64,000 nt of DNA, taken from positions 36,518,001 to 36,582,000 of the forward strand of contig NC_092353.1 in assembly GCF_963676685.1 (NCBI RefSeq), read 5' to 3'. Below the pieces are notes generated by a model, which did no database searches, was not told the origin of the DNA, and worked only from the letters and a program-made list of their open reading frames with translations. Every line of letters starts with the position of its first letter. The stretch's first letter is position 1. Shown piece by piece: positions 12,300-61,693 of this stretch. The position numbers were made by a program, and so were the translations under genes. Origin of the DNA: Mytilus edulis (lineage: Eukaryota).

Positions 12300-12428
12300 G
12301 AATATTGGCTACTGTAAATTCACAATGATTGACCTTTGACACAAATACACCCCCTTTCTTAAATAACAGCAAAAAAAGTCAAGAAGCGGCCGGTATTTTT
12401 TTTATGGGAAAATGATTACATATAAAAT
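12300..12428 (+). pseudogene. Decayed copy of GAR-only gene exon 1
   Basis: aagaagcggccggtattttttttatgggaaaatgattacatataaa matches aagaagcggccagtattttttaatgggaaaattattacatattaag (23663-23708). The ATG is followed by an early TGA, there are deletions, and the donor is lost. Confidence 0.7.
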
Positions 12429-18648: not shown

Positions 18649-18672
18649 CAATAATAATCTTTAAATATAGTT

Positions 18673-19329
18673 ATAACACAAGTATTAGACCAGAATAATG
18701 AACATGGATCCTGGAGTCAAGTTGAAAGGAAAGAAAAGAAAGAGAAACCAAAAGTATTGCTAGTTGGAACATCTAACACTGAACAAATTAAAACAGAAAG
18801 ATTAAGTGCACAATTTGATACAATGAAGAAAATAGCATACCATATTGATCAAGCAGAAAAGGTTATTGATGAACTAGAAGAATCTTATAACCCGGATGTT
18901 ATCGCCTATCATATATTGAGCAACGAACTTACGAAAAAATCCTCATCAGAATGTGTCTTACAACTTGAGAAACTTATACAAAAGACTAAAGAAAAAAGGC
19001 CAGACTCAAAAATAGTAGTCTCCTTGGCAACAAACCGAAGTGATGAGCGCAAATATAACTTAAAGGTAAATACCGTGAATTCCCTAGTAAAAGAAATGCA
19101 CGAGGAATCTAGTGATTTCGTTATTTGCGACAACCATAATCTGTCAGTTTCTGGTGAAATAAATAAAAAGTTTATAAATAATGATGGCTATCATTTAAGT
19201 GATGTAGGTGTAAAAGTTCTTGCCGCTAATATCAGGAAGTGTGTGGATCAGATTCTAGGTATCCCATTCATCAAACGCAGAGGGCCTGTTAACCGTAAGC
19301 CATGGCAAAAACCAAAAAGAGGCAGTTAA
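18673..19329 (+). CDS. LINE ORF1 C-terminal part: SGNH/GDSL esterase-like domain
   Basis: Block I LLVGTSNT, block III YHILSNEL, block V DGYHL..G...LA..I. The frame is open upstream of the TTG called at 18757 and has no ATG start, consistent with truncation. Confidence 0.8.
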   Translation: MTQVLDQNNEHGSWSQVERKEKKEKPKVLLVGTSNTEQIKTERLSAQFDTMKKIAYHIDQAEKVIDELEESYNPDVIAYHILSNELTKKSSSECVLQLEKLIQKTKEKRPDSKIVVSLATNRSDERKYNLKVNTVNSLVKEMHEESSDFVICDNHNLSVSGEINKKFINNDGYHLSDVGVKVLAANIRKCVDQILGIPFIKRRGPVNRKPWQKPKRGS

Positions 19330-22300
19330 ATCTATGCGTGTGGAACGTTGATGGTATAAAGACAAAAGATTTTGACAAATTTAATGATTCTAGTCTATTG
19401 AAACAAATAAGTTTATATGATATTGTAGGTCTAGTAGAAACTCACAATAATAAATCATTTAGCTCACCTCTATGTAACTATAAAATTTATCATAATTTTA
19501 GAAATCAAAATGAAAAGTCTAGAAGACTTTTTGGAGGTATAAGCGTTATGGTACGGAGGTCAATATCTGCAGGAGTAGCCCCCCTCCCTATCACAAATTC
19601 AAATTTTATGTGGTTTAGATTAGACAAAAACTACTTTTCCCTTAATAGAGACTTATATATATGTTTTCTACATATACCCCCTGAAAACTCTACTTATTCT
19701 ATTAAAGAAGGGGACCAATTTATAAATGATATCACAAATATGTATGATAAAGGGGACATTGCACTGTTTGGAGATTTCAATGCCCGTGTTGCTGTAGATG
19801 TTGACTTCATACCTAATGATAATTGTTCAAAATTTATGCCTGATGAACATTACATTGAGGATGTACCATGTACTACTAGAGAAAGTCAAGATCAGGTAAG
19901 ATGCAACAGAGGGAAAAGCTTGATTGACTTATGTATCCAAAGTAGACTAAGAATCCTTAACGGAAGGACATTAGGTGACTTGTCTGGGAAATTTACAGCC
20001 CACTGTTCCTTGGGCAGTAGTGTAATTGATTATATAATTGGAAGTGAAAGTATTTCACATAGATTTTTATGTATGAAAGTCCATGATTTTCAAAAATCTA
20101 TTTCAAATCATTGTTTGTTGTCATGTATTCTATCTGTAGATTTTGACGAACAATTAAATTCTGAGACAACAAAACTATTTCCACTTCCCCTAAGATATAA
20201 ATGGACTGATGGGTCTATTAGCAAATTCCAGGAAGCGTTGGCTTGTCCCTCTGTTGCATCTAAACTTGAAGAATTTAATAATTGTAATATAAGTTTAGAT
20301 AAAAATGGTATTGAGAAAGCTGTTGTTGATATGACCAATTGTATTTTAGAAGCTGCAAATATTTCTCTAAAGGCAAGGAAAGGGGTCATGAGAAAAAATA
20401 ATAAGAAAAAGAAAAAACCATGGTTTACCCCTGATCTACATGAAATGAAAACTTCGTTAGATTATCTAAGTAAACAACTTACCTTTAGACCTTTTGATAA
20501 CCAACTTAGACATAAATGTTTTTGTCTAAGTAAGCAGTATAATAAACTAAGGAAGGAAAGGCGACGGAACCATTTTAAAGATATAGTTAATAAAATGAAA
20601 AACCTCTCTACAAAAAACCCCAAACAGTTTTGGGAAATTGTTAATACACTCAAATTTTGTGACAGTGAAAAAGAGGAAATACCAATTACCCCCAGTGTAT
20701 TACTGGATCACTTTAAGGAGTTAGATAAGGTCTCAGGTGAAAAATCTTTAATTAATGACTATTTTAAGAACTGTCTAAATACAACTATAATTCCTAATGG
20801 AACAGATATATTAGACAACCCAATCACTATAAAAGAAATTAGTAAAGCTTGCCTAAAGCTTAAAAATAATAAAAGCAGTGGTCATGATGGTATTTTAAAT
20901 GAAATGATTAAGTATGGCCAGTTCGCACTGATGCCATCTTTGATTAAATTATTTAATAGTATTTTGTCATCTGGTATTTATCCAGAAAGTTGGTCAAATG
21001 GTATAATAATCCCTATTTTTAAACAGGGTGATAATCATGATCCTGGCAACTATAGAGGAATAACTATAACTAGTTGTATGGGCAAAGTTTTCAACTCCAT
21101 TTTAAATACACGACTCGAAGAATTTCTTAAAGTTAATAACATAATCGCTGATGAGCAAATTGGGTTTAAGAGGGGATGTAGAACTTCAGACCACATCTTT
21201 AAGCTTAAAACTATTATAGATAAATATTTAAATAAGTCAAAAAAACTTTATACTTGTTTTATAGACCTTAAAAAGGCATTTGACTCTGTGATCCACCCTG
21301 CCCTTTTATTAAAGCTTGCAAAAGCTGGTATTGGTGGGAAATATCTATCTATTCTACAATCCATGTATACAAATATTGGATTAAATGTAAAACTTAACAA
21401 TGAAAGTATAACCGAAGCCTTTCCTTCAAATATTGGTGTTTTTCAGGGAGACAACCTTAGTCCTAACCTGTTCAATGTATTTATCAATGATATCACCAAG
21501 ATATTTGATTGCTCCTGTTCACCAGTTTCTATGGGAACTAAATCTATTAACTGTTTGCTATATGCCGATGATTTATTGTTGATGTCAGAAACTAAAGAGG
21601 GTCTTCAAAATAGCATGAATAAAGTGTTTGAATATTGTAATGAGTGGGGACTTGGCATCAACTATCGAAAATCAAAAGTACTTATATTCAATAAGGGAAG
21701 TAGAATTCCTAAAGTTAATTTCTACATTGGTGAATCAGAAATAGAAATTGTAAAACAATACAAGTATCTTGGTGTTATATTTACTGCAAATGGTAGTTTT
21801 AATAATGCGCTAAAGGACCTATACACCCGAGGCCAAAAAGTTTTTTTCAAAATAACTAATGTATTTAAAAATATGTCTTGTGATGCAGAACATTTTTTGT
21901 ATGTATTTGACCATACTGTCAAACCTGTACTTTTATATGCATCCGAGATAGTGGGGATGTTTAAACCCTCTTTAGATGATAACTTATTTGAAAAAGTTTA
22001 TAAATATCTCCCATTGGAGAAACTTAATTTGTCTTTATGTAGATATATTTTATCAGTTAATAAAAAGACAAGCAAATTGGCCTTGTATGGTGAATTAGGT
22101 CGATATCCAATTTATATTGATATTGTTTCGTCTATGTTAAAATATTGGACTAGACTTGAAAATGATAAAACAGGTGATAAACTTTTATCTCATGCACTTG
22201 CAGAGAATCTACTCATGATTGAAAATAATCAAAATTGCTGGTTAAGCTCAATAAAAAATATTCTCAAGAAATTTAATATGTTCAACTCTAATGAGTCAGA

Positions 22301-22838
22301 ATTAACTCAATTACATGTTTCTATGAAAAATGGTGATATCCAAAGGATAATAAAATCTACTAAAAGTAAGTTTGAATCTAGATGGTTTCAACAACTTCAA
22401 ACCAGTGAGAAACTGAGAACATATAGAACTTTCAAAAACATTTTCAAATTTGAAAATTATCTTGTTAATATTTGTAACGAAAATGATAATATTAACATGA
22501 GTAGATATAGAACCAGCAATCATAGACTGCAAATTGAATTGGGTAGATATACAATACCAAAAACACCTGTTAATGACAAAACATGTAAGAACTGTTCCTC
22601 TTGTGAAGTAGAAGATGAAAAACACATTTTATTAGATTGCCAAAAATATTTTACTATTAGGCAAACCTATATAGACATTTGCTATAATAAGAATAGTTCA
22701 AAACTGAACACAGATAACAAATTTATTTGGCTTATGAGTAATGAACATGCCAATGTATGTAGAAATATATCTAGATTTCTAAGTTTGAGTATATTTTACA
22801 AAACTGATAGCAAAGCAACAGAAAAATTATCATCTTAG
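19302..22838 (+). CDS. LINE ORF2: apurinic endonuclease + reverse transcriptase + C-terminal Cys/His motif (1178 aa)
   Basis: WNVDG, LVETH, GDFNAR, SVIDY, SNH (APE). NYRGITI, FIDLKKAFDSV, QGDNLSP, YADD, YLG (RT). CKNC..CEVEDEKHILLDC. Confidence 0.95.
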   Translation: MAKTKKRQLNLCVWNVDGIKTKDFDKFNDSSLLKQISLYDIVGLVETHNNKSFSSPLCNYKIYHNFRNQNEKSRRLFGGISVMVRRSISAGVAPLPITNSNFMWFRLDKNYFSLNRDLYICFLHIPPENSTYSIKEGDQFINDITNMYDKGDIALFGDFNARVAVDVDFIPNDNCSKFMPDEHYIEDVPCTTRESQDQVRCNRGKSLIDLCIQSRLRILNGRTLGDLSGKFTAHCSLGSSVIDYIIGSESISHRFLCMKVHDFQKSISNHCLLSCILSVDFDEQLNSETTKLFPLPLRYKWTDGSISKFQEALACPSVASKLEEFNNCNISLDKNGIEKAVVDMTNCILEAANISLKARKGVMRKNNKKKKKPWFTPDLHEMKTSLDYLSKQLTFRPFDNQLRHKCFCLSKQYNKLRKERRRNHFKDIVNKMKNLSTKNPKQFWEIVNTLKFCDSEKEEIPITPSVLLDHFKELDKVSGEKSLINDYFKNCLNTTIIPNGTDILDNPITIKEISKACLKLKNNKSSGHDGILNEMIKYGQFALMPSLIKLFNSILSSGIYPESWSNGIIIPIFKQGDNHDPGNYRGITITSCMGKVFNSILNTRLEEFLKVNNIIADEQIGFKRGCRTSDHIFKLKTIIDKYLNKSKKLYTCFIDLKKAFDSVIHPALLLKLAKAGIGGKYLSILQSMYTNIGLNVKLNNESITEAFPSNIGVFQGDNLSPNLFNVFINDITKIFDCSCSPVSMGTKSINCLLYADDLLLMSETKEGLQNSMNKVFEYCNEWGLGINYRKSKVLIFNKGSRIPKVNFYIGESEIEIVKQYKYLGVIFTANGSFNNALKDLYTRGQKVFFKITNVFKNMSCDAEHFLYVFDHTVKPVLLYASEIVGMFKPSLDDNLFEKVYKYLPLEKLNLSLCRYILSVNKKTSKLALYGELGRYPIYIDIVSSMLKYWTRLENDKTGDKLLSHALAENLLMIENNQNCWLSSIKNILKKFNMFNSNESELTQLHVSMKNGDIQRIIKSTKSKFESRWFQQLQTSEKLRTYRTFKNIFKFENYLVNICNENDNINMSRYRTSNHRLQIELGRYTIPKTPVNDKTCKNCSSCEVEDEKHILLDCQKYFTIRQTYIDICYNKNSSKLNTDNKFIWLMSNEHANVCRNISRFLSLSIFYKTDSKATEKLSS

Positions 22839-23200
22839 TGTTCTGTCATATATATATATATATATTTATTTGTTGTATGGATATGGTAACTTAATAGAGT
22901 ATTTACATAAGAACAGGGTTGTCTCCCTTGATATTTATCATACCATATAATATAATATTTCCTTTTTTATGTGTGTATTAGATCTCTTTGTCAGCTATAA
23001 CTCTTTCTCAATATTTATGTACATATGCATTTATATTGTTCATTTTATGCTCTTAGTGAGTTTTCTTGAATAAAATAATTTGAATTTGAATTTGAATTTT
23101 AATATTAATATATGTATACAAACTAATTTTAAACACCAGACATAAACAACATAACATTTCAAGTGTATTGATTTACTTCCCTTACTTTTTATCAGAAACG

Positions 23201-23281
23201 TATTTATAAATTATTTATGTTGTAACTGGCAGTTTTATAGTACTACAGATTTGCACATTACAATTTCTAGCAGTGGTGAGT
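23201..23281 (+). promoter_or_regulatory. Putative TATA-like box and 5' non-coding exon of the GAR-only gene
   Basis: tatttataaa at 23201 and a consensus donor g|gtgagt at 23276. The block is conserved in the paralogous segment at 11515-11600. There is an acceptor ttag| at 23554 upstream of the ATG. Confidence 0.35.
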
Positions 23282-23579
23282 TACCGAGACTTTATATACA
23301 TTTTGCATATGGTTAAGGCTTGACGTTTAAGTGTTAAATTTTGAATATTTTTTTACATGAAAGCGAAAGCAATGCTTCTAACTAGGGACATATAATCAAT
23401 AATTAACAGTTTACATGCAAAAAATTATTAAAGCGAACAGCAGAAACAAAGTAATTATCCACGTTTAAATAATAATGGTCTTATAACATGTATAAGTGAG
23501 AATTGTATGTGTATTATGTTGGGAGAATATAATTAATATTTTATTTTATGTTAGGAATATACAACGCTGTGAAGTCACG

Positions 23580-23708
23580 ATGGCTGCTCTGAGACACAGC
23601 TTTTCTAAGGTTACAGATAACGCATTCCCCCCATGCAAATGTTACCAGTATTTGAGCAAGAAAAGAAGCGGCCAGTATTTTTTAATGGGAAAATTATTAC
23701 ATATTAAG
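23580..23708 (+). CDS. Stand-alone GAR (GAS2-related) domain protein, coding exon 1 (N-half of GAR)
   Basis: MAALRHSFSKVTDNAFPPCKCYQYLSKKRSGQYFLMGKLLHIK matches the GAR pattern CxC…G.Y….K….(R/K). Phase-0 donor aag|gtatgt. Confidence 0.72.
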
Positions 23709-24170
23709 GTATGTAAATTACATAACAAGATGAATGTTTTGTTATATCACTTTAAGATAGATGATCGAAACGTTGGTCATGTATTTCAGATAAAATTTAA
23801 AATATATGTAAAGTCAATCTTAATTTTAGCCATGATTTATTAGTCGTACTACGTGTAATAATCTTGACAACTTACTTTACATATATTTTAAACTTTAAGC
23901 ACATCAATATCAAGAAACAAATTATCACACAACGACATACAAATCCTCGAAAAAGTTTACAATGCACTCTAAATATTGCTTAAGTTACATAATAGATAAA
24001 GAAAACAGGCGTTTAACAACCATTGTAATAATATGTATCAATTATAGTATACGAATAAATAATGAGAAAGTTTGATTTTTCTACCTTGTAACATAACTAG
24101 CTAACTAAATATTGTACAGTTTCACACTTAATTTCATTCTGAAAGACATAAGACTAACGTTATTTATATG

Positions 24171-24346
24171 TAGTAAATAAACTTATCATAGATACCAGAA
24201 TTAAATTTTGTATTTAAGCCAGACGCGCTTTTCGTCTAAAAACAGACTCATCAGTGACGCTCGAATCCAATGAAGTTAAGAAAAATCCAAATAAAATACG
24301 AAGTTGAAGAGCATTGAGGACCAAAATCCCTAAAACTATTGCCAAA
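24171..24346 (-). repeat. Solitary retrozyme-family fragment (second subfamily) with hammerhead core at 24218-24262
   Basis: gccagacgcgcttttcgtctaaaaacagactcatcagtgacgctc…gaagttgaagagcattgagga. One stem III base is mutated. Confidence 0.8.
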
Positions 24347-25936
24347 ACTTTACTTTACAACATATTATAAAGTTATATTATCAGTTGTTACATGTAACTG
24401 ACCCTAGATATTACATTTATAATATGTTTCACACTCGTAGCTTTATTATTCTTCTTAAACAGTCCAGTTAGAATCGGGATGTCGAATCTGATGCCTTGTA
24501 TGAGTATAGTGCCATGCTTTCTACACATTAAGAACCCTTGCAACAACTCTTTGACGGATCCGTATGTGGCCAGTAGCAAGGCCAAATTTCTATCCCTATC
24601 CAATATAGCACTATTTTCCAGTGGCAGTCGAAATTAATTAATTAATTTTCCTTAACATCTTCATTTACATTCATATAATAGTTTGTTTTTAATTCTTTGT
24701 ATTGTGTTATTAAAGATCTGTTTGTATATATTTTGTTCTACTGTTATTGTGAATTTTAAAGTTTCACAAACCTTGGTTTGAGGTCTCTTTTGGAACAAAA
24801 TCTTTAAACTTAAGCTCATCGGAAAAATGATTGTTTCGGTTTTCTGCAAGGTCCCGTGGTCTCCTGTAGGTCATTTAGACTTCGATTGTAAGTTTCAAAA
24901 ATAGAATTTATATTTATGAATTGTTTCACTTTGTCCGCATGGTACAATTAAAAGATATTTTCAAATAGCCAATACTGTTCTCATACTTTCTTCATATATT
25001 TATTGGAGAATAGGATTATTAATGGATATTAAATTCAAAATCGTACCCCTATTAATATTCGGTTTAAAACGTTCTAATTGGCTAAAAATGGTAAACCAAT
25101 ATAAACTCGGCAAATTGAATGATAATATTTGCATATTTTAGTACAAGCAATGCAGTAAGCAATTGTATCTTAGATTATAAAGTGGCAATCTATTATAATA
25201 GAAAAACAAAGGATATGGGGTATATATCCATGTCACAAAATCAGTACATACACTACGAAAAACACAAGCAAAAAGCAAAAGAACAGCGTTGTATTGCTAT
25301 TCTATATCTCAAAGTAACCGCAAGGCCTTAAACACGGAACAAAGAACTTTCTTTTTTTTTTTTTTTTTTTTTTTATCTAAAATCTGATTTATTGCACTAT
25401 TGCTGTTATAATTAATACCATGTCTACAGCATTTGACAGGGCATCCCTGAAGCGTTAGTTTTACTGAACAAACAGGGAGATTGTTCAGTAAATTATTAAT
25501 AATAATAATAAATGGTTAGATTTACATGTTACAATATTGTGTATACAGATTATACAGATTACTACAGAAATTATTTTCCGGAAAAAAAATACATTCGTGA
25601 ACCGCTTTGACTCTGTATATATGCTAGTTGACCTGGTCATGACCTATTGATCAAGGATTACACGATGGAGGCAAATTAACAGTCGAAGCAGTTTGTTGTA
25701 TATTAATTATGTAGGTGAACATACTTGGTTACGAATTGAAGTACATTATATAATTATATTTATTTATGAGTATGCGATATATTAAATGAAGGATGCGTCA
25801 GAATAGTAGGGGTTTAATCTTTATCACTGATCATGATCATGACGAAGTCTACAACACGTGGTTTTAAGATTAACTAATATAGAGACACATGTATTGCTGA
25901 ATAAATTAGCATATAGCATATATGCGAGAATAATAA

Positions 25937-28900
25937 TTATATGTATAAGCTTATTTCTTTCAAAATTTTACCATGTTTACCACCTGAAAGTGTCGAAATA
26001 TTTAAGTAGTTCAAAAAATCTTTTTTGAACAGGGCATACACATCAAAATTTGTAGTTTTATAATTTGAACTGTGAGTGCACTTGTGGATAGAAAATGTAA
26101 TGAGTGTCACCAACAGATTTATATCATAATAATTGATATCACCGATTTTATATCCTATAATGAGGTTTCTGTAGTTTAGGATATGATGACCTATTTTAAC
26201 TTTATTTAATAGTATTTTGATCTTTTCCCAAAAAGTTTTAAAGTAACGACATTCTAGGAAAAAATGTTTATAATCTTCTGTTACATTACATAAGTCGCAT
26301 TTACTGTCTTCTTTTATCTTCCATTGAAAAAGCAATTGTTTGCAAGGAAGGATATGATGCAGCAATTTCCATTTAAATATTTTTAATCTGTTATCTTTTA
26401 AATAAGTAAATATAAAGTTAAGCATTGATTTAATTGGAATTAAGGAATCTAAATTTAGGACACGTTTCCATTTAAAGAAACCTGGAGGCGTGTCTTCATT
26501 TCCACTATTAATGTGTGTGTATATCTGTTTTGTTTCCATTACTTGTAAAATTATTATCTTATTTTTTTCTTTTGTATTGATGCAAAGGTTAAGTATATTT
26601 TTTACTTTTGATTTTATTGATTTTTCTGATTTAAGTACCTTGAGCCATTCATTTGGTAAGGCATAATTAAGTTTTGAAATTTCAAACATTAAATTGGATT
26701 TTGAGGATATTTTATTAGATATTATTTCTTGAGAGATATTACCATTTTGGTCTATTATATCGTTAACGTATATAATACCTTCTTTTATCCAATTTATAAA
26801 AACTAAACACTTTCCTTGAAATTTTATCAGTTTGTTTCCCCATAAGATTTGTTGTCTAATGTTTTTAAAATTCATATTGAGTTTGGTATTATTTAAATTT
26901 TGTACTTTGAACCAAGACTTTACAATTTCTAAGTAGAATTTTGGTAAAGTTTTATGTAGGTTTTGTATTGAGTAAATGTTGTCTAGATTCATGTAAAGTA
27001 GCATGAAATTAGCACCAAATTTATTAAAGTAAAATGTCGGAATTACTTTCCAGTTAGCAAAATCATCTGCAGTAAGTCTTTTTATCCATGCTATTTGTAG
27101 TGCAGTTATATAATTGTCTATATCTGTCATTTTAAGCCCTCCCTCAGTAGTATTTTTGCTAAGGGTGGTTCGTTTGACCTTTTCTCGTTTACCATCCCAT
27201 ATAAAATTGTAGATAATAGTTTTAAACTGTTGAATAAATTCATGTGGTAGGTTTGTGACTGAAGCTAAATATGTAAGGTTAGGTATAAGAAGAGATTTTA
27301 CAACTGTTATTTTACCTATCATTGTAAGATTTCTTTTTTTCCAATTACTTATTAATTTGTCACATTTCTGTATTATTTTTTCAGTATTCAGCTTATCACA
27401 TTCAGCTCGATCTGTTCCAAAATAAACTCCTAGACTTTTTATTGGTCCTTTATTCCATGTTATATTTTCAAACTTATCTTTACAATGTTTTAATTTTCCT
27501 AACCAAATGCCCTCAGTTTTTGATCTATTTAATTTTAAACCTGATAGCGTTCCAAAGATTTCAATAATATTAAGAGTGTGACGTACTTCATCTTTTGATT
27601 TTAGAAAAAGTGTTGTGTCGTCAGCTAATTGAGAAATCTTTAAACTGTGTGTTTTAGTATCTAGCTTAATTTGAAAACCTTTGATGTTGTTGTCTTGTCT
27701 TATTCTGCAGGACAAAATTTCTACAGCAATAACAAAAATCAGGGAACTTAACGGGCAGCCTTGTCTAATACCGCGTTTAATGTTATATGGTGATGAGATC
27801 CACCCATTGTTTAACATACAACCCGTTATGTCTTTGTACAGAGTTTTAACCCATTTGATAAAAGGATTTGGAAGGCCGAATTTCTTGAGTGCTTCATACA
27901 TAAATGGCCATTCCAATGAGTCAAAGGCCTTGGAAAAATCTATGAAGAGCAATGCTCCTTCAATATTAAAGTATTCTGCATGGTCTATTATGTCTTGAAT
28001 TTGACGAATGTTGAAACCTATATATCTATTTTTTATGTAACCATTTTGGTCACTATGGATGATTTTAGTTAGTATTGGTTTAAGACGTTGTGCTAAAGAA
28101 TATGCCATAAGCTTTGTATCAACATTGAGTAAAGTAATTGGTCTATAGTTGTCTAAAAGAAGTGGGTTTCCCTTTTTATATAATAAAGAGACTACTCCTA
28201 TTTTTTGTAGTGTGCTCATTTCTTCCTTTTGATAGCATGTGTTAAAAACTTTAACAACAATTTCTTTTAAATTTGTCCAGAAGGTTTGATAAAATTCTAC
28301 ACTGATCCCGTCGATGCCCGGTGATTTATTTAATTTCATAGATTTAATAGCTTCTGTACATTCTTTTATGGTAAGCTCCCCTTCTAGATTTTGAGTTTCC
28401 TCATGAGAAAGAGTTTTATCTACTTTTGTTTCTGTTATATATTTTTTTATTTCATTTTCATTAGGATTTGTACTTTTATATAAATTTTCATAGAAGTTTT
28501 TTTCTAACTTTAAAATTTCAGATGAATCTGTTATAATTTCTCCTTTTTCATTCGTAAGTGCAGAAATATTTTTATGAGTTTGTCTGGATTTTTCAAGGCC
28601 TATAAAAAATTTTGTGTTTTTTTCTCCTTCTTCTGTCCATTTTACACGTGATCTAACCTGAGCTCCCTTTGCTTCATTTATGTAAAGGTTCTCTAGTTTT
28701 TTCTCAGCATTGTTTATTCTATTTTGAACATTATTATCCTGTAAGTTTTCTGCATTTTCGTTCAATTTTTTTAATGACAGTTCTAATTTAATTATTTCAT
28801 TTTTATTTTCAGCTTGTTTTTGCCTACAGTATTTAATGGTTATGTCTCTTACTTCAGCTTTAAAAACGTCCCACTTAACTCGAGGATCTACAGCCGTAGT

Positions 28901-29743
28901 AAGTATTTTTTGTTTATAAGTTTGAATTAAGTTATTAATGAGATTTTGATATTTTGTGTCATTCAATATACTGTTATTAATTTTAAAGAAACCTCGGCCT
29001 CTACTGTGTGCTTTGTGTCTTAGCTTTAATGAAATTGCCTGATGATCAGTGTAAGAAATAGCAGCGGGTCTAATATCTGCTGCTGTAATATGTGGTCTTA
29101 TATCAGAGCTAATAAGAAAATAATCTATTCTGCTTGCTATGTTAAAGTTATTTTTCCTTCTCCAGGTGAACTGTCTTTTGTTTGGGTTAATTTCTCTCCA
29201 TATATCAACTAACTTATGTTTTTTTATTAATTGTTTCAAACTATTTACAGGTTTATTAAATTTTTGTGTACTTGTACTTTTTCTGTCGTTTTCAGTCAGA
29301 CTTTCATTTATATCCCCTCCAAGTATTAAAATGCCTAATCTATTATTTTCAATTAAGTTGTTTATTTTTTTGAAGAAAGAATTTCTATTTCTTTGTATAT
29401 TTGGTGCATAAACATTAACTAAAGTGAAGATGTTATTATCAAGTTCTACATTAATTAGAATAAACCTGCCCTCCTCATCTTTTATTTCATTTATTATTTT
29501 GTGATTTATGTTTTCTTTAATTAAAATTGAAACACCTCTGGATAGGGAATTGCCAAAGCTATGGTATATCTTACATTTAGTTTCACTATTTATTACATTT
29601 ATGTTTTTATCGGTGAAATGGGACTCTTGAATAAACAAGATGTCACATTTTTGATTTTCACACCAAATATATAGTCTGTCTCGCTTTTCTTTTTTTCCTA
29701 GCCCTTGGCAGTTCAAGGAGCAAATATTTAAATTATTACTCAT
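25937..29743 (-). CDS. L1/Tx1 ORF2: endonuclease + reverse transcriptase + zinc finger (1268 aa)
   Basis: SLNCQGL, IQESH, NVYAPN, GGDIN, SRIDYF, TDH. KSPGIDG, NYRPITLLN, DFSKAFD, RQGCPLS, LADD. CDLC...EDYKHFFLEC. Confidence 0.96.
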   Translation of the reverse strand: MSNNLNICSLNCQGLGKKEKRDRLYIWCENQKCDILFIQESHFTDKNINVINSETKCKIYHSFGNSLSRGVSILIKENINHKIINEIKDEEGRFILINVELDNNIFTLVNVYAPNIQRNRNSFFKKINNLIENNRLGILILGGDINESLTENDRKSTSTQKFNKPVNSLKQLIKKHKLVDIWREINPNKRQFTWRRKNNFNIASRIDYFLISSDIRPHITAADIRPAAISYTDHQAISLKLRHKAHSRGRGFFKINNSILNDTKYQNLINNLIQTYKQKILTTAVDPRVKWDVFKAEVRDITIKYCRQKQAENKNEIIKLELSLKKLNENAENLQDNNVQNRINNAEKKLENLYINEAKGAQVRSRVKWTEEGEKNTKFFIGLEKSRQTHKNISALTNEKGEIITDSSEILKLEKNFYENLYKSTNPNENEIKKYITETKVDKTLSHEETQNLEGELTIKECTEAIKSMKLNKSPGIDGISVEFYQTFWTNLKEIVVKVFNTCYQKEEMSTLQKIGVVSLLYKKGNPLLLDNYRPITLLNVDTKLMAYSLAQRLKPILTKIIHSDQNGYIKNRYIGFNIRQIQDIIDHAEYFNIEGALLFIDFSKAFDSLEWPFMYEALKKFGLPNPFIKWVKTLYKDITGCMLNNGWISSPYNIKRGIRQGCPLSSLIFVIAVEILSCRIRQDNNIKGFQIKLDTKTHSLKISQLADDTTLFLKSKDEVRHTLNIIEIFGTLSGLKLNRSKTEGIWLGKLKHCKDKFENITWNKGPIKSLGVYFGTDRAECDKLNTEKIIQKCDKLISNWKKRNLTMIGKITVVKSLLIPNLTYLASVTNLPHEFIQQFKTIIYNFIWDGKREKVKRTTLSKNTTEGGLKMTDIDNYITALQIAWIKRLTADDFANWKVIPTFYFNKFGANFMLLYMNLDNIYSIQNLHKTLPKFYLEIVKSWFKVQNLNNTKLNMNFKNIRQQILWGNKLIKFQGKCLVFINWIKEGIIYVNDIIDQNGNISQEIISNKISSKSNLMFEISKLNYALPNEWLKVLKSEKSIKSKVKNILNLCINTKEKNKIIILQVMETKQIYTHINSGNEDTPPGFFKWKRVLNLDSLIPIKSMLNFIFTYLKDNRLKIFKWKLLHHILPCKQLLFQWKIKEDSKCDLCNVTEDYKHFFLECRYFKTFWEKIKILLNKVKIGHHILNYRNLIIGYKIGDINYYDINLLVTLITFSIHKCTHSSNYKTTNFDVYALFKKDFLNYLNISTLSGGKHGKILKEISLYI

Positions 29744-30920
29744 CTAAATAATGAACTATACATGTATTAGCAAAGATTACTACAGAGATATACATCATAA
29801 CAAACTGTTTTAATTTGTTGTATACAATACAGCTATGACTAAACGTATAATAGTAGTAATGCATGAGTATATATAATATATATGTATCATTATAATATGT
29901 GTTTTTTACAATAATACAGTTTTGTACTTGTGCCTGTATGTAAATGTATATAGGAGCTTGATTTTCAGAAATTACTTTTTCTATTTTCAGATATTTGAAT
30001 TGTTCAATAAGGAGTGTTCGAGTGCTCAACAACATTATAACTGTGATCAAATGAAATATATTCTCAACAGTTTTTGATGACGTCTTAAATTTTCCATACA
30101 TTTGAACCTGGAAATGATATCTTTTTGTGTAGAATTCTTTGGAGATTTTTAAATGTTCACTTAACGCTGCTGTAAATGTGTGTATCATGTGTTTTAATAA
30201 GATATGGATCTGTACTTCAAGTGAATATACTGCGTCAAAATGATTAGCATAGCTGGTTGTGAAATATGTGTGTCTTGATAGTATGGTGCAAAAATATATG
30301 AGTGCAATTCGTTTCGTACTTCCTGTGTGTGATGCGGTATATGGTGATATACTACATATAGTTGCGTACCATATTTGCAATTTCGTAGGAATATGAAGTG
30401 GTTGGTATATTTTCCGATTATTCTTGTTTGAATTGCAGAAAATAGAAGATTTGTTTGTACAATCAGTGCTTACGTGTAATAAAAGCATTTTGGTGATGAA
30501 CCGAATTAAACAAATGCAGCCTAATGACGTGGATAGTAGAACTAGTGATCGTTTCATTTTGTTAACTAGTGAATAAAAGTTTTTTCTTTTTGTTGGTTTA
30601 ATGCTTGTTTTAAAATTATCTGTTTCTTTCAGACATATGTTTTTGTTGGTATTTTGTGAATAAACATACATATAAGATAAATTACATATTACACTGTTTT
30701 CTATTTCTACATCATCATGATCATCAATTGAGAACATATGATCTAGTTTTGTGTCATATTTCTCTTTTTGATTGGTTAATATACATGTACTACTCTTATC
30801 AACACAAATACAATATACAATATGTATAGAGGATAAGTAGTTTTCATTTTCGATATCATTATTCAAACACATATAATCTAAATTATATCGTATTTTTTTT
30901 TTTTTTTTTTTTTTTAACAT
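29736..30920 (-). CDS. Uncharacterised hydrophobic middle ORF of the Tx1 element (394 aa; possibly ~449 aa from 31086)
   Basis: 1185 nt with no stop codon in very AT-rich DNA, on the same strand as ORF1 and ORF2. Its stop overlaps the ORF2 start (ATGAGTAA). It has several hydrophobic segments. Confidence 0.55.
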   Translation of the reverse strand: MLKKKKKKKIRYNLDYMCLNNDIENENYLSSIHIVYCICVDKSSTCILTNQKEKYDTKLDHMFSIDDHDDVEIENSVICNLSYMYVYSQNTNKNICLKETDNFKTSIKPTKRKNFYSLVNKMKRSLVLLSTSLGCICLIRFITKMLLLHVSTDCTNKSSIFCNSNKNNRKIYQPLHIPTKLQIWYATICSISPYTASHTGSTKRIALIYFCTILSRHTYFTTSYANHFDAVYSLEVQIHILLKHMIHTFTAALSEHLKISKEFYTKRYHFQVQMYGKFKTSSKTVENIFHLITVIMLLSTRTLLIEQFKYLKIEKVISENQAPIYIYIQAQVQNCIIVKNTYYNDTYILYILMHYYYYTFSHSCIVYNKLKQFVMMYISVVIFANTCIVHYLDE

Positions 30921-31157
30921 AATAAATAAAAGTCATGAAAAAACATAAAATGAGAACATTGTTTATGTTTACCATAACATCAGTTGGACACATACAATCT
31001 ATTATTACAAAGAGTTCTTTTTTTTGTTTGTATTTTACACTATAAATAAAAACACAGAAAAAAAGTAAATATATACAAATGTTCATGGAAATAGGTATAT
31101 AATTTTACTATTTAATGCTTATAAAATTTATATACATTTAGTTGAGCCGGATGATAG

Positions 31158-32456
31158 TTAGGGTCCCTTTGGTTTCTGAATATTTGATGTTCGTTCGTGA
31201 ATTTGGTCAGTTGGTGTTGTTGCTGCGCGTTTGTCTTTGCGTCCATCAGGGGTTCCAACATTGTTGTTTCCTTGGAAGTGAAAGAACAATGTTGATTGAT
31301 TAGGATTGTCCTCGTTGTCTTTATTAAGTTGTTGTGTACCGGTTTTTTTGCCAGACTTTTTTTTAGCTTTTGCCTTTTTAATTTCATTGTTATGTTTGGA
31401 TGCTGAAATGCCTTGGTGTTCAGGTTCGTTCATAATGAGAGCTGCATCCTTTTTATTTGAAGCATTATAGCTGAAACTTGCGCTTGTCACATTGAAATTT
31501 TGCATAAAAGACGGAGACTGGTTGGTGGTTCCCATCTTTTCAGTATTTGTTTTAAGTTCAGATGTATTTTCATTTTCACTTGTTGAATCTTCAGATTCAT
31601 GCATGCTAGCATTATTGACGTTGACTGGATGTTCTTGAGCGTGGGCAATAACGGTCTCGAAATTTGGACATTCAGCTTTCTTATGTCCTGGGTTGTTGCA
31701 TGTTGTACATACCCACTCATTTGGGCATTCTCTGAGCACGTGCCCAGTTTGTAGACATTTGTTACATGTGAGCTGAGATGAATCAGTTTTCTGTTCTTTG
31801 TGTAACAAAACGGCCATATATTTACCAATTTTAAGAGTTCTAGGCAAGACCTTTTCCATGGGTTCACAGTATAATATCCTGTCTCCTGTTTGGCAGTTGG
31901 TGAGTAAACCGTCCACTCTGAGTCGCTCTCTGTCTAATGAGTGGACTGTCCCTCCAAGATTTTCTACTGCCCTCATAATCTGTCCATCCTCAGCAGAGCA
32001 TGGGATGTTCTTGACCCTAACACGCCAGTGATGAGGATTGTCATGATCGTATACCTTTGAATTAGGATTGCGGGTATAGATTTTCAAAAGTTTTTTCCTT
32101 AAAACCAGTCCCTTTGTTATTAAGGTGTCTCTGTCAGTTTCAGAGTCGGGATAAATTCGCCACATCCCTTTTACCCTTTGCAAACCTCTGAGGTTCCTAG
32201 AATTAACAATATGATCAATGGATTTGTAAAGTTCAACATGGTTGAGAAACTGACCTATGCTTGGTTTGACATCACCAAACAGGTCTTTCTCTAGCAGGAA
32301 AACTGGCTTAACCGAACCAAGTATCTCGTGTGGGTTCATGGGATTTTCAACCTGATTGTTGGCCATCAGACCGTTTTTCACTGCGTTTTTGTATGACTCT
32401 GGTAGGTTTTTAATATGGCTGACATCAGCACTATTGATGTCCGAACTTGCCATCAT
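31158..32456 (-). CDS. L1/Tx1 ORF1: RRM-like region + two CCHC zinc knuckles
   Basis: CNKCLQTGHVLREC and CTTCNNPGHKKAEC, VRVKNIP, TGDR. The first ATG is at 32456; the track's start at 32516 is a TTG. Confidence 0.92.
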   Translation of the reverse strand: MMASSDINSADVSHIKNLPESYKNAVKNGLMANNQVENPMNPHEILGSVKPVFLLEKDLFGDVKPSIGQFLNHVELYKSIDHIVNSRNLRGLQRVKGMWRIYPDSETDRDTLITKGLVLRKKLLKIYTRNPNSKVYDHDNPHHWRVRVKNIPCSAEDGQIMRAVENLGGTVHSLDRERLRVDGLLTNCQTGDRILYCEPMEKVLPRTLKIGKYMAVLLHKEQKTDSSQLTCNKCLQTGHVLRECPNEWVCTTCNNPGHKKAECPNFETVIAHAQEHPVNVNNASMHESEDSTSENENTSELKTNTEKMGTTNQSPSFMQNFNVTSASFSYNASNKKDAALIMNEPEHQGISASKHNNEIKKAKAKKKSGKKTGTQQLNKDNEDNPNQSTLFFHFQGNNNVGTPDGRKDKRAATTPTDQIHERTSNIQKPKGP

Positions 32457-32682
32457 CAAAATGGTTATTTGTCCGTATATTTGTGAAAGATATTGCAACA
32501 GATAGTTATAATACAAGTGTCTACCTAGTATGCACCTATTCAGTATACTTATACTCTGGATTACGTCTTTAAACTATTGATTTTACTTGGATTTGTAGGA
32601 GCGAAAAAATTTCCGTGGAATACCTTCGGCCCCTTACGTCATCTGAACTTTCATAAATATTCACAGTTCATTTATCTTGCAG

Positions 32683-32907
32683 GTCAATGAAACGTCAGAG
32701 AAACATCACGTGATGGTTAAAGTTGGTGGTGGTTGGGAGACACTGGAAGACTACATGGCCCGTCATGTTCCATACAAGTTTAAGATAACAGAGTATAAAC
32801 GGCCATTATATAATAACACGTGTGAAGTTAAAGACATATATCTTGGAATTAAGTCACATTATAAGTCCTGGAACCAGTCAAAACAGTTTTATTATTCACT
32901 ACTATAA
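32683..32907 (+). CDS. Stand-alone GAR domain protein, coding exon 2 (C-half of GAR + tail)
   Basis: tttatcttgcag| VNETSEKHHVMVKVGGGWETLEDYMARHVP… matches the GAR hallmark HVMVRVGGGW.TL..YL..HDP. Phase 0. Confidence 0.85.
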   Translation, partial: VNETSEKHHVMVKVGGGWETLEDYMARHVPYKFKITEYKRPLYNNTCEVKDIYLGIKSHYKSWNQSKQFYYSLL

Positions 32908-36637: not shown

Positions 36638-38272
36638 ATGTACAGAGCTAAAAGGATGCATAAATATTCACCAGATACCGGAGATCCATATAGTGATGAT
36701 AACTATAATTCAGAAGAAGAGGAACGAGTTTACTACAGCTATCCTCAAAGACGCTTGATTAGATGTGTACCAACAAGGACAGTCTCCGAACACCATGATA
36801 ACAGAATTATTAAAAGGTATAGTGTTCGACAGAAAGAACCAGAAAGAGATCGCATTATGTATCCATCATCACATATCGTCAGGAAAACAAATTGTAAAAC
36901 CGAAAGTGAAACTCAATCTTCTTCAGATTATTACAGAGATAACACAGTTTATAAAGTACATGTAATTCCATCAAAGCCAACTGAAAAACGGAATAATAAA
37001 ACACCCAATTTGCATAAAAAGGAAGAACTTGAAACATATTCGTATTCATCTCCATCCTTCCGATTTATCCGCCGAGAAAATTCGGAAAGTGAAAGTGAAA
37101 CCGAATCTTCTACTGATTACAGCACTCAAACTAAACAACCGATTCAAAGGTCAAAAATGAAAACTGCGAGGTTTTCAAATTCATCCCCTAGACGTGTCGT
37201 AACTTATCACATCATTGAAGATCCTTCTGACAGAAAAATAGATCGAAATAAATCGAGTAAATTTGTATCTTCTAATAAATCCGATAATATTGTTAAACGT
37301 AGGATGGAAACTCTTCCTCGAACTCGACCTTATGGTGGTGAAACACGAGGACACAACTTGCCATATCAAACCAAACTTAATGATGATGTTACTTTTCTCC
37401 GACCCTATAGAGAAGTTCGTAGAAAGAATGAGATAAGTGAAAACAAGATGATTGTCAAAGATATACAGCAATCCTTTCCTAACACAAGAAAACCGGAAGG
37501 GTCTATAGAAAGTTACGCGTATACAAGTTCAGATGAAAGTTCCGAATCAGATAGTAGCGATGGATATACAACTGACAGTTCTGAAACTCAACAAAATGAC
37601 AGATATAATGCTCTGTCTACGAGATCAACACAGACAGAATGTCTTCTCGTTGACTATTCGAAAATGGTAAAATCTAGAGAAGAGCAAAGGAAATACGAGC
37701 AAGAACGACGACAACATGCACAGGAAAGGCATATTGTAAGTTTAGTTCAAAAGGAAGTAAACAAACCACGTTTAAAGTCGAACATTACCGGCGATTCATG
37801 TATAACTGCAACTATCGAAAACCCGACAAAACCACTTCCTAGTAATACGAAGGGGACAAGCACGTTGGATGATCCAGAGAAAACAAACGACATTAAGGAG
37901 AATGTTCCGATTGATTTGGAAAAGAAGGAAAGAGATGAGAGACGCAATCAATTAGAAGTATGGACAAATCCTAAGTTCAATTCTGACAATCGGCAAACAA
38001 TTTTAAATAATAATAAACAGGACAATGTTGTGTATAATTTTGATCAATGCAGAAACAACTCCAATACATTAACTGACAAGCGAGACGAAGCACCTGACAA
38101 TATTGACGTAAAAATATATTACGATGAAAATTTTGAATCGATGTACCCGCAGCCACGTAAAAAAGGTTGCCAGTTAGTTTATTATATAGATTTGAGACCA
38201 CCTACAAAAATAGTAGATCCGAAACCATTTGACGTATTCGAACGGCGTATCGTGCCTCAACCGAAACGTAAG
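36638..38272 (+). CDS. Family-A gene A3, exon 1 (545 aa disordered, charged region)
   Basis: Longest family-A copy. It ends at a phase-0 consensus donor aag|gtaaga after QPKRK and contains RSTQT. Confidence 0.82.
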
Positions 38273-38924
38273 GTAAGAAATTGAAAAGAAATAATACAGA
38301 TAAGAATAAAATTTTATAGAAATCTTTTTAATTGAATCATGAAATAACGACTAAACAATTTCTAGAAAAATAGTGACAAATAAGGTATTATTATCCTTAA
38401 ACTTCATATATTTTAGAGTTGCTACTTTAAAGGAAGCCCAATCAAATTATACATAATAGTAGAGTTGAAGCTGTTGTTTGGAAGATTTTTGGATGTTATG
38501 TTGATTTGTATCGGTTGACTATGATTGAATGTATGTGTCACAGATGACTACGGCTATGTTTCAACAATCGTACATGAAACTATAATTCCATTGTGTTTTT
38601 ATCGATTGTGGCATTAGCGAATGCACTTATATCACATGATTTGTGCTTGTAATGTACAGTGCAGATGCATCACGAACTGCTTGCCCCTTTGGAGTACCTG
38701 AGATCCCCCTGGTTTCTGATTGGGTTTGTATAGCTCAGTCACTGTCTGCAATGCACCATTTGTAGACCATGGCCAGACCGTTTTCAATTGAAAATCAATT
38801 TGATATAAAACCATCATTTTGATCTAAAAAAAACAATATGTAAGTGAGACATTTTCAGACTTATATACTGCGGGAAAATTAGTAATGTTCGGATATTTGG
38901 CATAGTGTTGCAGTCTTCAAAATA

Positions 38925-39222
38925 TAAAAGAGGGACGAAAGATAACAAAGTGACAGTCGAACTCATAGATTGAAAATAAATTGACAACGGCCTGGAAAAA
39001 AATAAAAAGACAAACAGACAAATAATAGAACAAATAATAGTACAGAAGACACAACATAGAAAACTAAAGACTAAGTAAAGCGAACCCCACCAAAACTGGG
39101 GGTGATATCAAGTGTTCAAGAAAGGTAAGCAGATTCTGCTCCACATGTGGCACCCGTCGTGTTGTTTATGTTATAACAAATCCGGTGCATAGTCTAATTC
39201 GGTAGGTCACATTCGTGAAAAG
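38925..39222 (+). repeat. Dispersed SINE-like repeat (second copy at 40765-41020)
   Basis: aagagggacgaaagata…aaactaaagac…cccaccaaaactgggggtgat…ctccacatgtggcac is shared with 40765-40990. Confidence 0.7.
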
Positions 39223-39659
39223 TGAAATATGTGTATTCTATGTTCAAACTGTTCAGTAGTATGTATTTTCTGTACACATCAATTATATACTGAATTGTCC
39301 GAAAACCTACTGAACAATACGTATTGAATTGTCTCCTGGCAAATGTTCTGAACAGTACTGAAAAAAACACAGTAGATAAGTCTAAACACTTGTCTTATAC
39401 TCAGAGCACCTAATAAATAAGTTGATGCAATGACCAAAAGGATGCATTTACTGTTAATATATGTTCGTTAATCTTATTTCTGGATGGGGTATCGTTTGGT
39501 TTTTTTAACCATCCCTCTGTACTCTTATCTGTGTCATATACTTTAATCACGAAAACCAACGACAACCACTTAATAACAGGCTGACACGACAGGCACACGA
39601 ATAATGTGGCAGGGTTCCACTCTTGGATACAAAAAAAAACCAACTTCAACAAACACACA

Positions 39660-39895
39660 GAATCGACAAGAACGGGTTCTTATACATCCGAATAACAAAA
39701 AGACACTAAGTACAAATCTGAGATTACTCGCAGTTACTGACAGTTAGTTCAAAGCAAATAACGACTAATAAAATAGCATTCTCCTGAGATTAAGTATCAA
39801 TCAGTACACATACGACATCCTACTGATTTAGAGAAAAGATGTCAAAAACAGTCAGAGAAAAATATGACCTTGAGCAATGCCAATTTACCTATATT
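39660..39895 (-). repeat. Penelope-type 3' terminal fragment, inverted relative to 56070-56280
   Basis: tactcgcagttactgacagttagttcaaagc and aatcagtacaca are reverse complements of sequence at 56135-56225. Confidence 0.7.
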
Positions 39896-39912
39896 TCACA
39901 TAAACGAATTTT

Positions 39913-40234
39913 AAATAAACACAAAAATGCAATGCAAAGTGTCAAAAAGTAAATTCAACCAGTATTGGAAAAACTTTAACTACTACTTTTATCATTGACT
40001 ACAGTACGATCACTAATATTTCCAATGTAATTATTTCAGAAAAAACATCCCGATTACGCAGTCAAGGTTGGTGAAATAAACACAAAAATGCGATGCAAAG
40101 TGTCAAAAAGTAAATTCACCCAGTATTGGAAAAACTTTAACTACTACTTTTATCATTAACTACAGTACGATCACTAATATTTCCAATGTAATTATTTCAG
40201 AAAAAGCATCCCGATTACGCAGTCAAGGTTGGTG
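39913..40234 (+). repeat. Recent 161-bp tandem duplication spanning the A3 exon-2 acceptor
   Basis: 39913-40073 and 40074-40234 are near-identical and each contains attatttcag|aaaaa(a/g)catcccgattacgcagtcaaggttggtg. Confidence 0.93.
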
Positions 40235-40407
40235 GCGGATGGAATACAATGAATGACTATATGGAAAGACATGAACCAGTGAAAAGATTCGTTTATGAAA
40301 GAGAACATTTAAAAAACTCTGATTTACCGGAGGCAAAGAAAAAGTACTATGGATTCAGATCAAATTATAAGTCACCACGATATAATCAACCTCATCGTAC
40401 TATATGA
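40201..40407 (+). CDS. Family-A gene A3, exon 2 (C-half GAR exon); not in the ORF track
   Basis: KKHPDYAVKVGGGWNTMNDYMERHEPVKRFVYEREHLKNSDLPEAKKKYYGFRSNYKSPRYNQPHRTI*. The phase-0 acceptor matches the donor at 38272. Confidence 0.82.
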   Translation, partial: KKHPDYAVKVGGGWNTMNDYMERHEPVKRFVYEREHLKNSDLPEAKKKYYGFRSNYKSPRYNQPHRTI

Positions 40408-48728: not shown

Positions 48729-49252
48729 GTAATTAAGATACGAGTACCATTTACTTTAGATGGGATATATTTTCCTTGATTTAAAAAACAAAGTTAGGCA
48801 TTCTTTTTGAAAAATCTTAACTTAGAATTCGAGTAAACGAGATTTTACGCATTCCAATGAAGAAGAGACAAATAGATAAACTATGACACTAATATAATTA
48901 CATTTCGGTGAAAATGGCAATTCATTAAATTAATGATAATTGCGTTAAATTTCACTATCCTAATCTATTTCGTTTATTAAAATATCGCTGTGAAATATTT
49001 GTATTAAGTATTCACGTGACCTTAAAAGAAATGAAAGTCAAAACGGAAAGTCCCTTATCAGTTTGCAAAATAAAAATCTCATACATATCAAACGAATGGA
49101 TAACAACTATTATATTTATGACATAACACGGGCATTTCCTTAACATTTAGAATAGTAGATTAAACCTGGCTGCTTTTCATAGCTAGCTTAACATATTACT
49201 AACTGTTATGTTATTAATAACCTTTCACATTGTTTAAATTTTCTACTTGCAG

Positions 49253-49471
49253 AAAGATTGCAACAAAGTGGTAAGGGTAGGTGGCGGATGGAGTGATATT
49301 AACGACTACTACAAAAGACATGTGCCAGTTACAAGGAGAGAATATAACAGGTCTAGCAACTATAAAGGACGATCATACCTTAGTTTCCAGTCACATTACA
49401 AATGTCCTCCAAAACTCAAGCATCATTCAAAAGTTAAAAATTCTGCCACTAAAAAAGCTACATTGAATTAA
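49253..49471 (+). CDS. Family-B gene B2, exon 2 (C-half GAR exon)
   Basis: ttctacttgcag| KDCNKVVRVGGGWSDINDYYKRHVPVTRREYNR…YLSFQSHYKCP…*. Phase 0. Confidence 0.82.
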   Translation, partial: KDCNKVVRVGGGWSDINDYYKRHVPVTRREYNRSSNYKGRSYLSFQSHYKCPPKLKHHSKVKNSATKKATLN

Positions 49472-60700: not shown

Positions 60701-61693
60701 AAAATTATTTCGTTTTAGAGGCGGAAAATGCACTAATTCTTTTTATCTGCTGGTATTTTAAATACCAATTAATTACTGTTGCAACGTTGTTTATTAAAAA
60801 AAATAAGCTTTAATAGTCAAGGCCTTTTGTATTTAGTAAATAGAAGTCGACTTTTAGAAAATAATCCCAAATAATTATGTTATTTTGAATGTGTATTTAA
60901 CTACATATACATTGTGTTATTCAAAATAATCCTTATGCAATTTATCAATTGTTTTTTTGTTTTATGTTTTATGGTTACACAAGTATGATAAAACTATCAG
61001 TTTAAAATCAATTCAAACCGCGATGAACCTAAACAATTAGTCTCGAAAAACACACTCCATGTAATTAAACAATCTTAAAGAAAGATCCAATTTTTAAATT
61101 TCAAAAAACTAACCAGGCGTTACATTGGTTCAATATCATGAATACATACGTGTAGATTTAAAGCGTTATTCATATTCGTTTATATGTGACCTAGGCTTTT
61201 CCTGAGAATATGTGTAAATATATAAATTTCTGACTGTTTGTATTTTTATAACGGTTTGTTTGATGAGGTATTCATCCATATGATTACCAGCGTGTGACGT
61301 AGTGAAAGTGACAGTATATTTCAACCTTATTATTGGCCATACAAACCTGGTTACTAGGGAATAAGCCTTTGACTGGCGGATTAACATATATGTAGTAATT
61401 ATAACTACGAATGTGTATAGAAAGAAAAATGCTTTAAATTTTTATTTAATCCGGTGGGTGTTTTTATAAGGTAATTCGTATGTGACACGGTTCACTGGAC
61501 TGTGATGAGCAAGTATAGACAGCACAGCAACACAAGATTATGGCGAATTGAGAGAGATGGAAAAATAAACAAACCGTTAAAACAAAACACGAACAAACAA
61601 CAGAACGAAACAATAACATGTGGATGTGTTGAAATAATCAAGTGATATTTTTCTGGATTTTAATTAATTTATATACATAGGGATAATAAGAAA

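Follow-up and report, generated by a model that had tools for sequence, protein, structure and literature searches.

A transcribed GAR-only gene of the mussel Mytilus edulis, likely duplicated from an upstream GAS2 gene and possibly encoding a microtubule bundler

Proteins of the GAS2 family have been described as built on two essential parts, a CH and a GAR domain (PMC7791176), and in unicellular relatives GAR is 'usually' accompanied by CH, while in fungi it also occurs with spectrin repeats (PMC9145010). For GAS2 itself, residues 198-314 (117 amino acids) were reported to dimerize via residues 277-314 and to bind (dissociation constant, Kd, about 0.69 uM), bundle, nucleate and stabilize microtubules through nine contact positions (K237, R242, R252, G254-256, W257, K266 and H267), and the dimer tail is structurally unsolved, AlphaFold2 and AlphaFold3 disagreeing between helix and hairpin (An et al. 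2025, PMC12084551). Removal of CH from GAS2L3 left microtubule turnover unchanged (PMC3137072). The canonical zinc ligands of GAR are Cys-Cys-Asp-Cys (PMC10656233), and zinc is cited as needed for the integrity of the domain (PMC12084551). In the present study a stretch of 64,000 nucleotides (nt) from Mytilus edulis was analyzed (NCBI RefSeq assembly GCF_963676685.1, contig NC_092353.1, positions 36,518,001 to 36,582,000; hereafter the window), in which an original prediction, made from the letters alone, had proposed a hidden GAR-only protein split by a 9-kb intron. This GAR-only gene is real, spliced and transcribed in the mussel, and it encodes a protein of 117 amino acids without a CH domain.

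The gene lies on the forward strand. Its first coding piece (23580-23708; 43 codons, residues 1-43, the N-half of GAR), directly followed by a GT donor, belongs to an exon that begins at 23555 behind an acceptor of its own (23555..23708), and the second piece (32683-32907, residues 44-117), behind an AG acceptor, supplies 74 codons plus TAA; joined in phase 0, they yield the 117 amino acids, as had been predicted. The intervening intron (23709..32682) is skipped in contigs of four out of four runs, from four studies, which were compared against positions 13400-33300 (joint 23708>32683), and because these contigs skip 8,974 nt bounded by GT..AG the four runs carry spliced RNA. At least half of the sequence words of exon 2 with its 3' flank were contained in 20 of the 24 listed runs (13 studies), and one of the screened runs is recorded as RNA. 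In two of the four runs (X2, X5) a non-coding first exon (23200..23275, about 70 nt visible, with an approximate 5' end) is joined to the ATG exon over an intron of 279 nt (23276..23554; joint 23275>23555, GT..AG). This leader holds three in-frame stops, the last of them (TAG, 23268-23270) ten codons 5' of the ATG; the contigs of the other two runs terminate at or within the ATG exon and are uninformative on the 5' end, and in run X4 one contig stops exactly at the start of that exon. Because the upstream exon is non-coding and closed by stops, the 117-residue protein has no CH domain, and no upstream CH exon was seen in the transcripts.

As to the protein, Pfam found GAS2 (PF02187) as the sole domain of the orthologue P0004, which is identical at 115 of 117 positions, with 40.8 bits against a cut-off of 21.3 (E 2e-10); exon 2 alone scored 35.5 bits. 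The match covers positions 11-67 of the 69 in the profile and leaves out the first helix, so that the domain had been called complete with slight overstatement. Plakin domain, spectrin repeats and EF hands are absent from the complete 117-residue frame according to Pfam. The sequence matched GAS2 (9KBW) at E 1.3e-8 and spectraplakin GAR at E 0.03, and a search of the ESM Atlas gave GAS2 clusters only and no structure. The ATG exon encodes CKC at codons 19-21, the predicted strands 1-3, K38 and K43, while the last exon encodes the G-hairpin VKVGGGW, helix 2, HVPY (71-74), a GAS2-like tail and an extra C-terminal helix. The protein is basic (isoelectric point 9.5) and ends 43 residues beyond the GAR core, with no SxIP in the translation. 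Its tail can be aligned with the GAS2 dimerization tail (277-314) as far as Y103-K104, and across 85 sequences the conservation of L97 and Y103 reaches at least 90%.

All nine GAS2 contact positions have counterparts in the mussel protein (K38, K43, K56, G58-60, W61, R70 and H71), six of them identical and three with Lys and Arg exchanged, and its span and length equal those of the GAS2 198-314 construct. Because span, contacts and tail match that construct, a dimeric, microtubule-only bundler born by exon duplication is proposed as the best explanation, to which we give about an even chance. The GAR-only protein would dimerize through its tail, and the dimer would bind and bundle microtubules without a link to actin, probably in a zinc-free state.

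Regarding its origin, a genome search gave 15 GAR matches, among which a CH+GAR gene at C10:36.312-36.326 Mb, on the same strand and 215 kb upstream, is the candidate parent. A second copy of this entire gene with equal match scores, on C2298, is likely an uncollapsed haplotype. The GAR of the parent is split at the identical phase-0 position, with an N exon of 96 nt, and both genes have CKCxQY and, behind the invariant His, an aliphatic residue, features not found in most other molluscs; the N-halves are 48% identical over 25 residues. At codons 8-10 of the GAR-only gene (23601..23609, forward strand), the position of the parent acceptor, a pyrimidine run plus AG in phase 0 likely represents a relic 3' splice site, which is read straight through in three runs. 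From its AG to the donor there are 99 nt, against 96 nt in the parent exon. Sites as good occur at 249 of the 64,000 window positions (0.39%), a frequency that understates chance, the position having been chosen after inspection. Human GAS2 has a 108-nt exon from c.616 to c.723, consistent with the same borders, and c.723+1 falls after codon 241, so that we equate this intron position with mussel intron 2 (PMC11218307). The GAR-only gene thus likely arose when the final two exons of the upstream GAS2 gene were duplicated: after this event the old acceptor would have fallen from use, and residues 1-10, which appear to be former intron, would have been recruited together with the ATG. A first tree placed the gene inside mollusc GAS2 next to the mytilid parent (support 85/95), and a constrained tree joining the two had the best likelihood. 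The trees comprised 62-105 columns with long branches, and of six groupings subjected to approximately unbiased (AU) tests none was rejected; parentage is carried more by linkage and shared motifs than by the tree.

Annotated orthologues exist in M. trossulus (XP_063401976.1/XP_063401977.1, 117 amino acids, 109/117 identical) and M. galloprovincialis (VDI44169.1, 117 amino acids, 115/117 identical) under automatic names: 'GAS2-like' ('growth arrest-specific protein 2-like') and 'GAR domain-containing'. The protein is therefore only partly hidden, and no paper describing either a GAR-only or a half-GAR protein from molluscs was found in the open-licence literature of PubMed Central and bioRxiv. 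A search with exon 2 gave an orthologue cluster of six, comprising the M. trossulus protein, two M. galloprovincialis predictions and three transcript-assembly proteins (contigs of 917-931 nt); one annotated M. galloprovincialis form (P0003) has a different, shorter tail. In metagenome records a distant orthologue, known from its last exon alone, is 61-65% identical and has the same FYYSL end. A metagenome contig scan for this distant orthologue gave two loci, one of which (L027) proved to be a chance bacterial match. The distant GAR-only last exon (P0046) and a parent-type last exon (P0178) are each listed on a Joint Genome Institute contig of 2,614 nt; should this be a single contig, the two genes would be neighbors in the animal concerned.

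The original prediction regarded the zinc site as lost or rewired. C19 and C21 are retained, the Asp is replaced by Val72 and the distal Cys by Tyr74, HVPY standing in place of HDPC, so that two of the four ligands are indeed gone. This is not special to the GAR-only gene: the distal Cys was retained in none, and the Asp in five, of 29 named mollusc CH+GAR GAS2-like proteins (23 species, isoforms included, picked from among the matches listed), and the parent has HIPK at the distal motif. Because all 29, including the parent, are without the distal Cys, its loss is likely to predate the GAR-only gene. Outside molluscs CxC was missing in 9 of 18 proteins checked (spiders, horseshoe crab, echinoderms), and zinc-site erosion is thus common in invertebrate GAS2. 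In oysters and scallops a His stands beside both halves of the motif as a candidate substitute ligand; the GAR-only protein has neither (after CKC; first of HH), and its spare Cys90, which might have spoken for rewiring, is absent from the more distant orthologous exon. Loss of the site rather than rewiring appears more likely.

Several results weigh against a duplication-born microtubule bundler. For the 115/117-identical orthologue AlphaFold2 gave a mean predicted local distance difference test score (pLDDT) of only 53.9, with residues 1-29 and 43-50 below 50, and the model shows no helix 1. Compared with known structures, three GAR structures ranked at the top, but as weak matches (E 0.05-1.4); a VIA comparison of this low-confidence model, in whose matches no GAR chain was listed, carries no weight. 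A control with the same 85 sequences, a gastropod GAR plus tail likewise without the distal Cys, reached pLDDT 75.3 (about 90 in residues 1-60) and matched the GAS2-GAR structure at E 6e-6; it is closer to most of the 85 rows, and alignment depth may account for part of the difference. In the sequence, part of helix 1 has been replaced, the strand 3-4 loop inside the microtubule-binding region carries an insertion of 3 residues, and the Arg to Lys changes at two contacts are rare (Lys in 4 and 7 of the 85 rows); insertion and changes could weaken binding. A second tree left the gene unplaced among bivalves, and AU tests did not reject groupings with vertebrate GAS2 (p 0.28) or GAS2L1/2 (p 0.14). 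Finally, identity to M. trossulus is 93% against 99% for the parent, and that of the last exon to the distant relative is 61-65% against 87%; judged by these identities, the GAR-only gene evolves faster than its parent.

Downstream of the gene, on the same strand, lie half-GAR genes of its cluster. In A3 (36638..40407, 613 amino acids) a long low-complexity exon (36638-38272) is spliced straight to a C-half exon (40201-40407), a joint found in all four runs, and the product is identical to the public protein P0188 at 613 of 613 positions. B2 (46278..49471) has a long exon ending at 48728, then the C-half exon 49253-49471, with an open frame, a GT..AG joint in three of four runs and a one-letter variant in the fourth; two of the runs used for A3 and B2 were also used for the GAR-only splicing. 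A degenerate N-half concealed at the ends of their large exons was sought but found no support, five of six scored ends falling below 0 bits. Of gene D, the first large exon (61664..62887) lies in the window, and the C-half exon follows outside it (L014, C10:36592999-36593085). Gene D, arguably more interesting than the GAR-only gene within the cluster, encodes a long Arg/Ser/Pro-rich protein, whose half-GAR end carries a strongly conserved WMKVEHHRxHHxP and a basic tail.

A profile search of longer proteins gave 30 matches, namely Mytilus A-, B- and D-types, one Batillaria protein, transcript proteins and D orthologues, the last from the scallops Pecten, Ylistrum and Argopecten and the ark clam Tegillarca; the D records of Pecten, Argopecten and Tegillarca stand on contigs equal in size to those bearing the CH+GAR gene of each species. 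The GAR-only type was named in Mytilus only, among the matches listed (120 of 423). The half-GAR is likely older than the GAR-only gene, and because the D-type occurs also in scallops and the ark clam, the GAR-only gene probably did not serve as template for the entire cluster, a role that had been considered for it. At most the A- and B-type last exons could derive from it: they group with its last exon in tree 1 (97/93; the A3 row of the window out of frame, that of M. trossulus in frame) and in a last-exon tree (89), where two Batillaria rows join the group and every alternative survives the AU tests.

A decayed copy of the N-half exon (12301..12427, forward strand), with stops and frameshifts and no donor, follows the truncated A1, which makes it likely that an A gene and an N exon were duplicated in tandem as one unit. 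A1 (582-1900) and A2 (13806-15343) are A3 paralogues with early stops and degraded sequence thereafter, A2 being transcribed in two of the four runs, independently of the GAR-only gene. Use of the ATG exon as an internal exon of A2 (13806-15185) was considered and excluded, as A2 contigs pass their own stop to 15769, no joint leads from A2 to 23555, and the ATG exon has its own leader.

Among the alternatives, it is possible, though doubtful, that the GAR-only protein acts as a heterodimer partner or decoy, its tail pairing with the CH+GAR parent or with half-GAR proteins, by which one actin arm would be removed from GAS2 dimers or a microtubule grip lent to disordered half-GARs. The tail motif is the part retained by every member of the cluster, GAS2 dimerizes via this tail (PMC12084551), and spliced A3 and B2 occur in the very runs that contain the GAR-only gene. 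Such co-presence, however, is weak, the runs having been selected for that gene and possibly mixing tissues; moreover, A2 is missing in one run with the GAR-only gene, and the tails have diverged (last exons 39% and 30% identical). Extended to the cluster, this idea would mean that bivalves dismantled GAS2 into modules, a likely zinc-free GAR plus tail protein without CH and an older family of long disordered half-GARs, which end in nothing but the last GAS2 exon and have persisted in scallops, ark clams and mussels on the chromosome that bears the parent. The tail would be a heterodimer code for microtubule adaptors, and different heterodimers would each load disordered cargo arms of their own onto microtubules. 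We put this forward tentatively, as a bolder lead than the GAR-only gene itself; for such a combinatorial microtubule-adaptor system, if true, no description was found in the open-licence literature searched.

Rather unlikely, but supported by part of the evidence above, is a remodelled domain, the N-half not being packed as GAR and the working unit consisting of G-hairpin, helix 2 and tail, as in half-GARs, with microtubule binding weak or swapped for another protein partner. The domain may be remodelled, as the model lacks confidence in its N-half, residues 1-50 being poorly predicted beside a good control (pLDDT 54 against 75), and residues 1-10 are likely new if the relic splice site is genuine; in scallops and mussels alike half-GAR proteins persist although they have no N-half, and the GAR of trypanosome SNAP1, from which most zinc ligands and basic residues are absent, is reported not to bind microtubules (PMC10656233). 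On the other hand, CKC, the YxxxGK strand pattern, K38 and K43 are retained, the neighboring dead copy of the N exon decayed while that of the GAR-only gene did not, residues 3-13 still show the pattern of an amphipathic helix (moment 0.50; parent helix 0.41), and the new N-terminus was informed by just four near-identical rows in the fold prediction.

That the gene is a transcribed duplicate decaying under relaxed selection, with no function of its own, seems improbable. It changes faster than the parent, the cluster holds the decayed A1 and A2 as well as LINE (long interspersed nuclear element) insertions, and the tail of P0003 is altered; yet an open frame of equal length is kept in the named species and transcript assemblies, the last exon, with its final FYYSL, retains 61-65% identity in a distant animal, and all nine contact positions are kept. 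Quite improbable is a complementation in which the protein donates its N-half in trans to half-GARs, or a rewired zinc site: the half-GAR paralogues, which have no recognizable N-half (below 0 bits), adjoin the gene, and CxC is retained, but the protein has its own C-half, so that the suggested role as N-half donor is unlikely and a swap would require an exchange of domains, half-GARs of the D-type exist in scallops and the ark clam with no GAR-only protein there among the matches listed, and the lack of conservation of Cys90 and the absence of both candidate His speak against rewiring. Hardly credible is a use of the two exons as alternative last exons by a longer transcript with CH, which the X4 contig end, permitting more than one upstream continuation, and the relic acceptor, in phase with the upstream exon of the parent, might suggest, since the leader is closed by stops in two of four runs, three runs continue through the relic site, and the closest CH exons lie more than 215 kb off with other genes between. 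Among the best candidates scored in the own genome, no CH exon was found between the parent and the GAR-only gene, and the CH part of the parent matched only the parent locus, its C2298 copy and a GAS2-like locus on C6.

Intron 2 of the GAR-only gene is mostly occupied by an intact LINE on the opposite strand (25937..32573), with a first open reading frame (ORF1) carrying zinc knuckles (31158-32573) and a second (ORF2) encoding an endonuclease-reverse transcriptase (25937-29743, 1268 amino acids open). A second LINE, on the forward strand (18658..22838), ends about 360 nt before the first exon; for neither element was a clear target-site duplication found. Forward-strand contigs with GT..AG joints 25710>28813 and 28898>29991 (window 25710-30554) run antisense to the intronic LINE and likely derive from another copy, differing from the window by about 9%. 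Within A3, a 161-nt tandem duplication (39913-40234, 97.5%) has produced a truncated second acceptor with first codons just upstream of the one used, and B2 contains a 60-nt tandem repeat (47094-47449) encoding about six basic, His/Asn-rich units of 20 residues. Its paralogue B1 (42221-45256), for which no GAR exon was found, is transcribed; the segment 43595-44851, left out of contigs at non-canonical boundaries, is likely no intron but an insertion carried by this genome. Two further half-GAR genes 15 Mb off (C10:51.45-51.48 Mb; L010, L011, L022-L024) combine D-like starts with A-like last exons, which suggests exon shuffling among cluster members. Between the parent and the cluster lie tandem secreted-type genes (5129-9189 and L025/L018) with a coiled-coil exon and a Cys-rich last exon ending in CVVCSK, and a 350-nt repeat is present in about 3.5 tandem copies at 2946-4197.

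A GAR without CH is in itself not new, as SNAP1 of Trypanosoma brucei shows, and the GAR-only gene has been annotated automatically in relatives. Like the mussel protein, SNAP1 has a CH-less, GAR-like domain with zinc ligands missing (most of them in SNAP1); it differs in its coiled coils, the absence of the basic residues, which the mussel protein keeps, and the absence of microtubule binding (PMC10656233). In the gastropod Batillaria attramentaria a cluster of tandem CH-less GARs (KAK7479167.1, KAK7479169.1, KAK7479170.1) has kept CKC and lost DxC as in the mussel, with longer N- and C-terminal parts. Three CH-less GAR genes (P0010, P0012, P0033) stand on one Batillaria contig, one of them with two GAR-like parts. 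Two of the Batillaria CH-less GARs start with MG and a nearby Cys, a pattern that may denote a lipid anchor. The full Batillaria domain groups with gastropod GAS2 and the last exon alone with the GAR-only gene, so that origin may be parallel or shared; in the parallel case the snail would have assembled a similar CH-less cluster by itself.

Spectraplakin GARs (MACF1/ACF7; 5X57, 5VE9) have the GAR core VxVGGGW in common with the mussel protein, which unlike them is without EF hands, spectrin repeats and plakin domain and has an incomplete Cys-Cys-Asp-Cys set. The question of a zinc-free GAR, for which the mollusc clade offers a natural test, bears on the reading of human MACF1 zinc-ligand variants. 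GAS2L1 and GAS2L2 are reported with a long C-terminal tail and SxIP (PMC7791176), and the mussel protein has neither. With mollusc CH+GAR proteins such as XP_052086746.1 and the parent it has in common the lost distal Cys, HxP, the tail motif and the exon borders (38% identity over 91 residues), while the parent, unlike the GAR-only gene, has CH, an intact helix 1, a His beside the zinc motif and slower evolution. The gene may serve as a clean example of how a partial duplication gives birth to a gene, its start codon apparently taken from an old intron. With vertebrate GAS2 (CH3, GAR and tail; 9KBW, 1V5R; PMC12084551) the mussel protein shares the GAR sequence, the nine contact positions, tail homology, the intron position and the length of the construct, from which it is set apart by the missing CH and linker, the missing DxC ligands, the new first ten residues, the 3-residue insertion and the extra C-terminal helix. 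While the cluster supplies natural deletions for the study of the GAS2 dimer tail, the GAR-only gene can be regarded as a natural counterpart of the engineered GAS2-GAR fragment.

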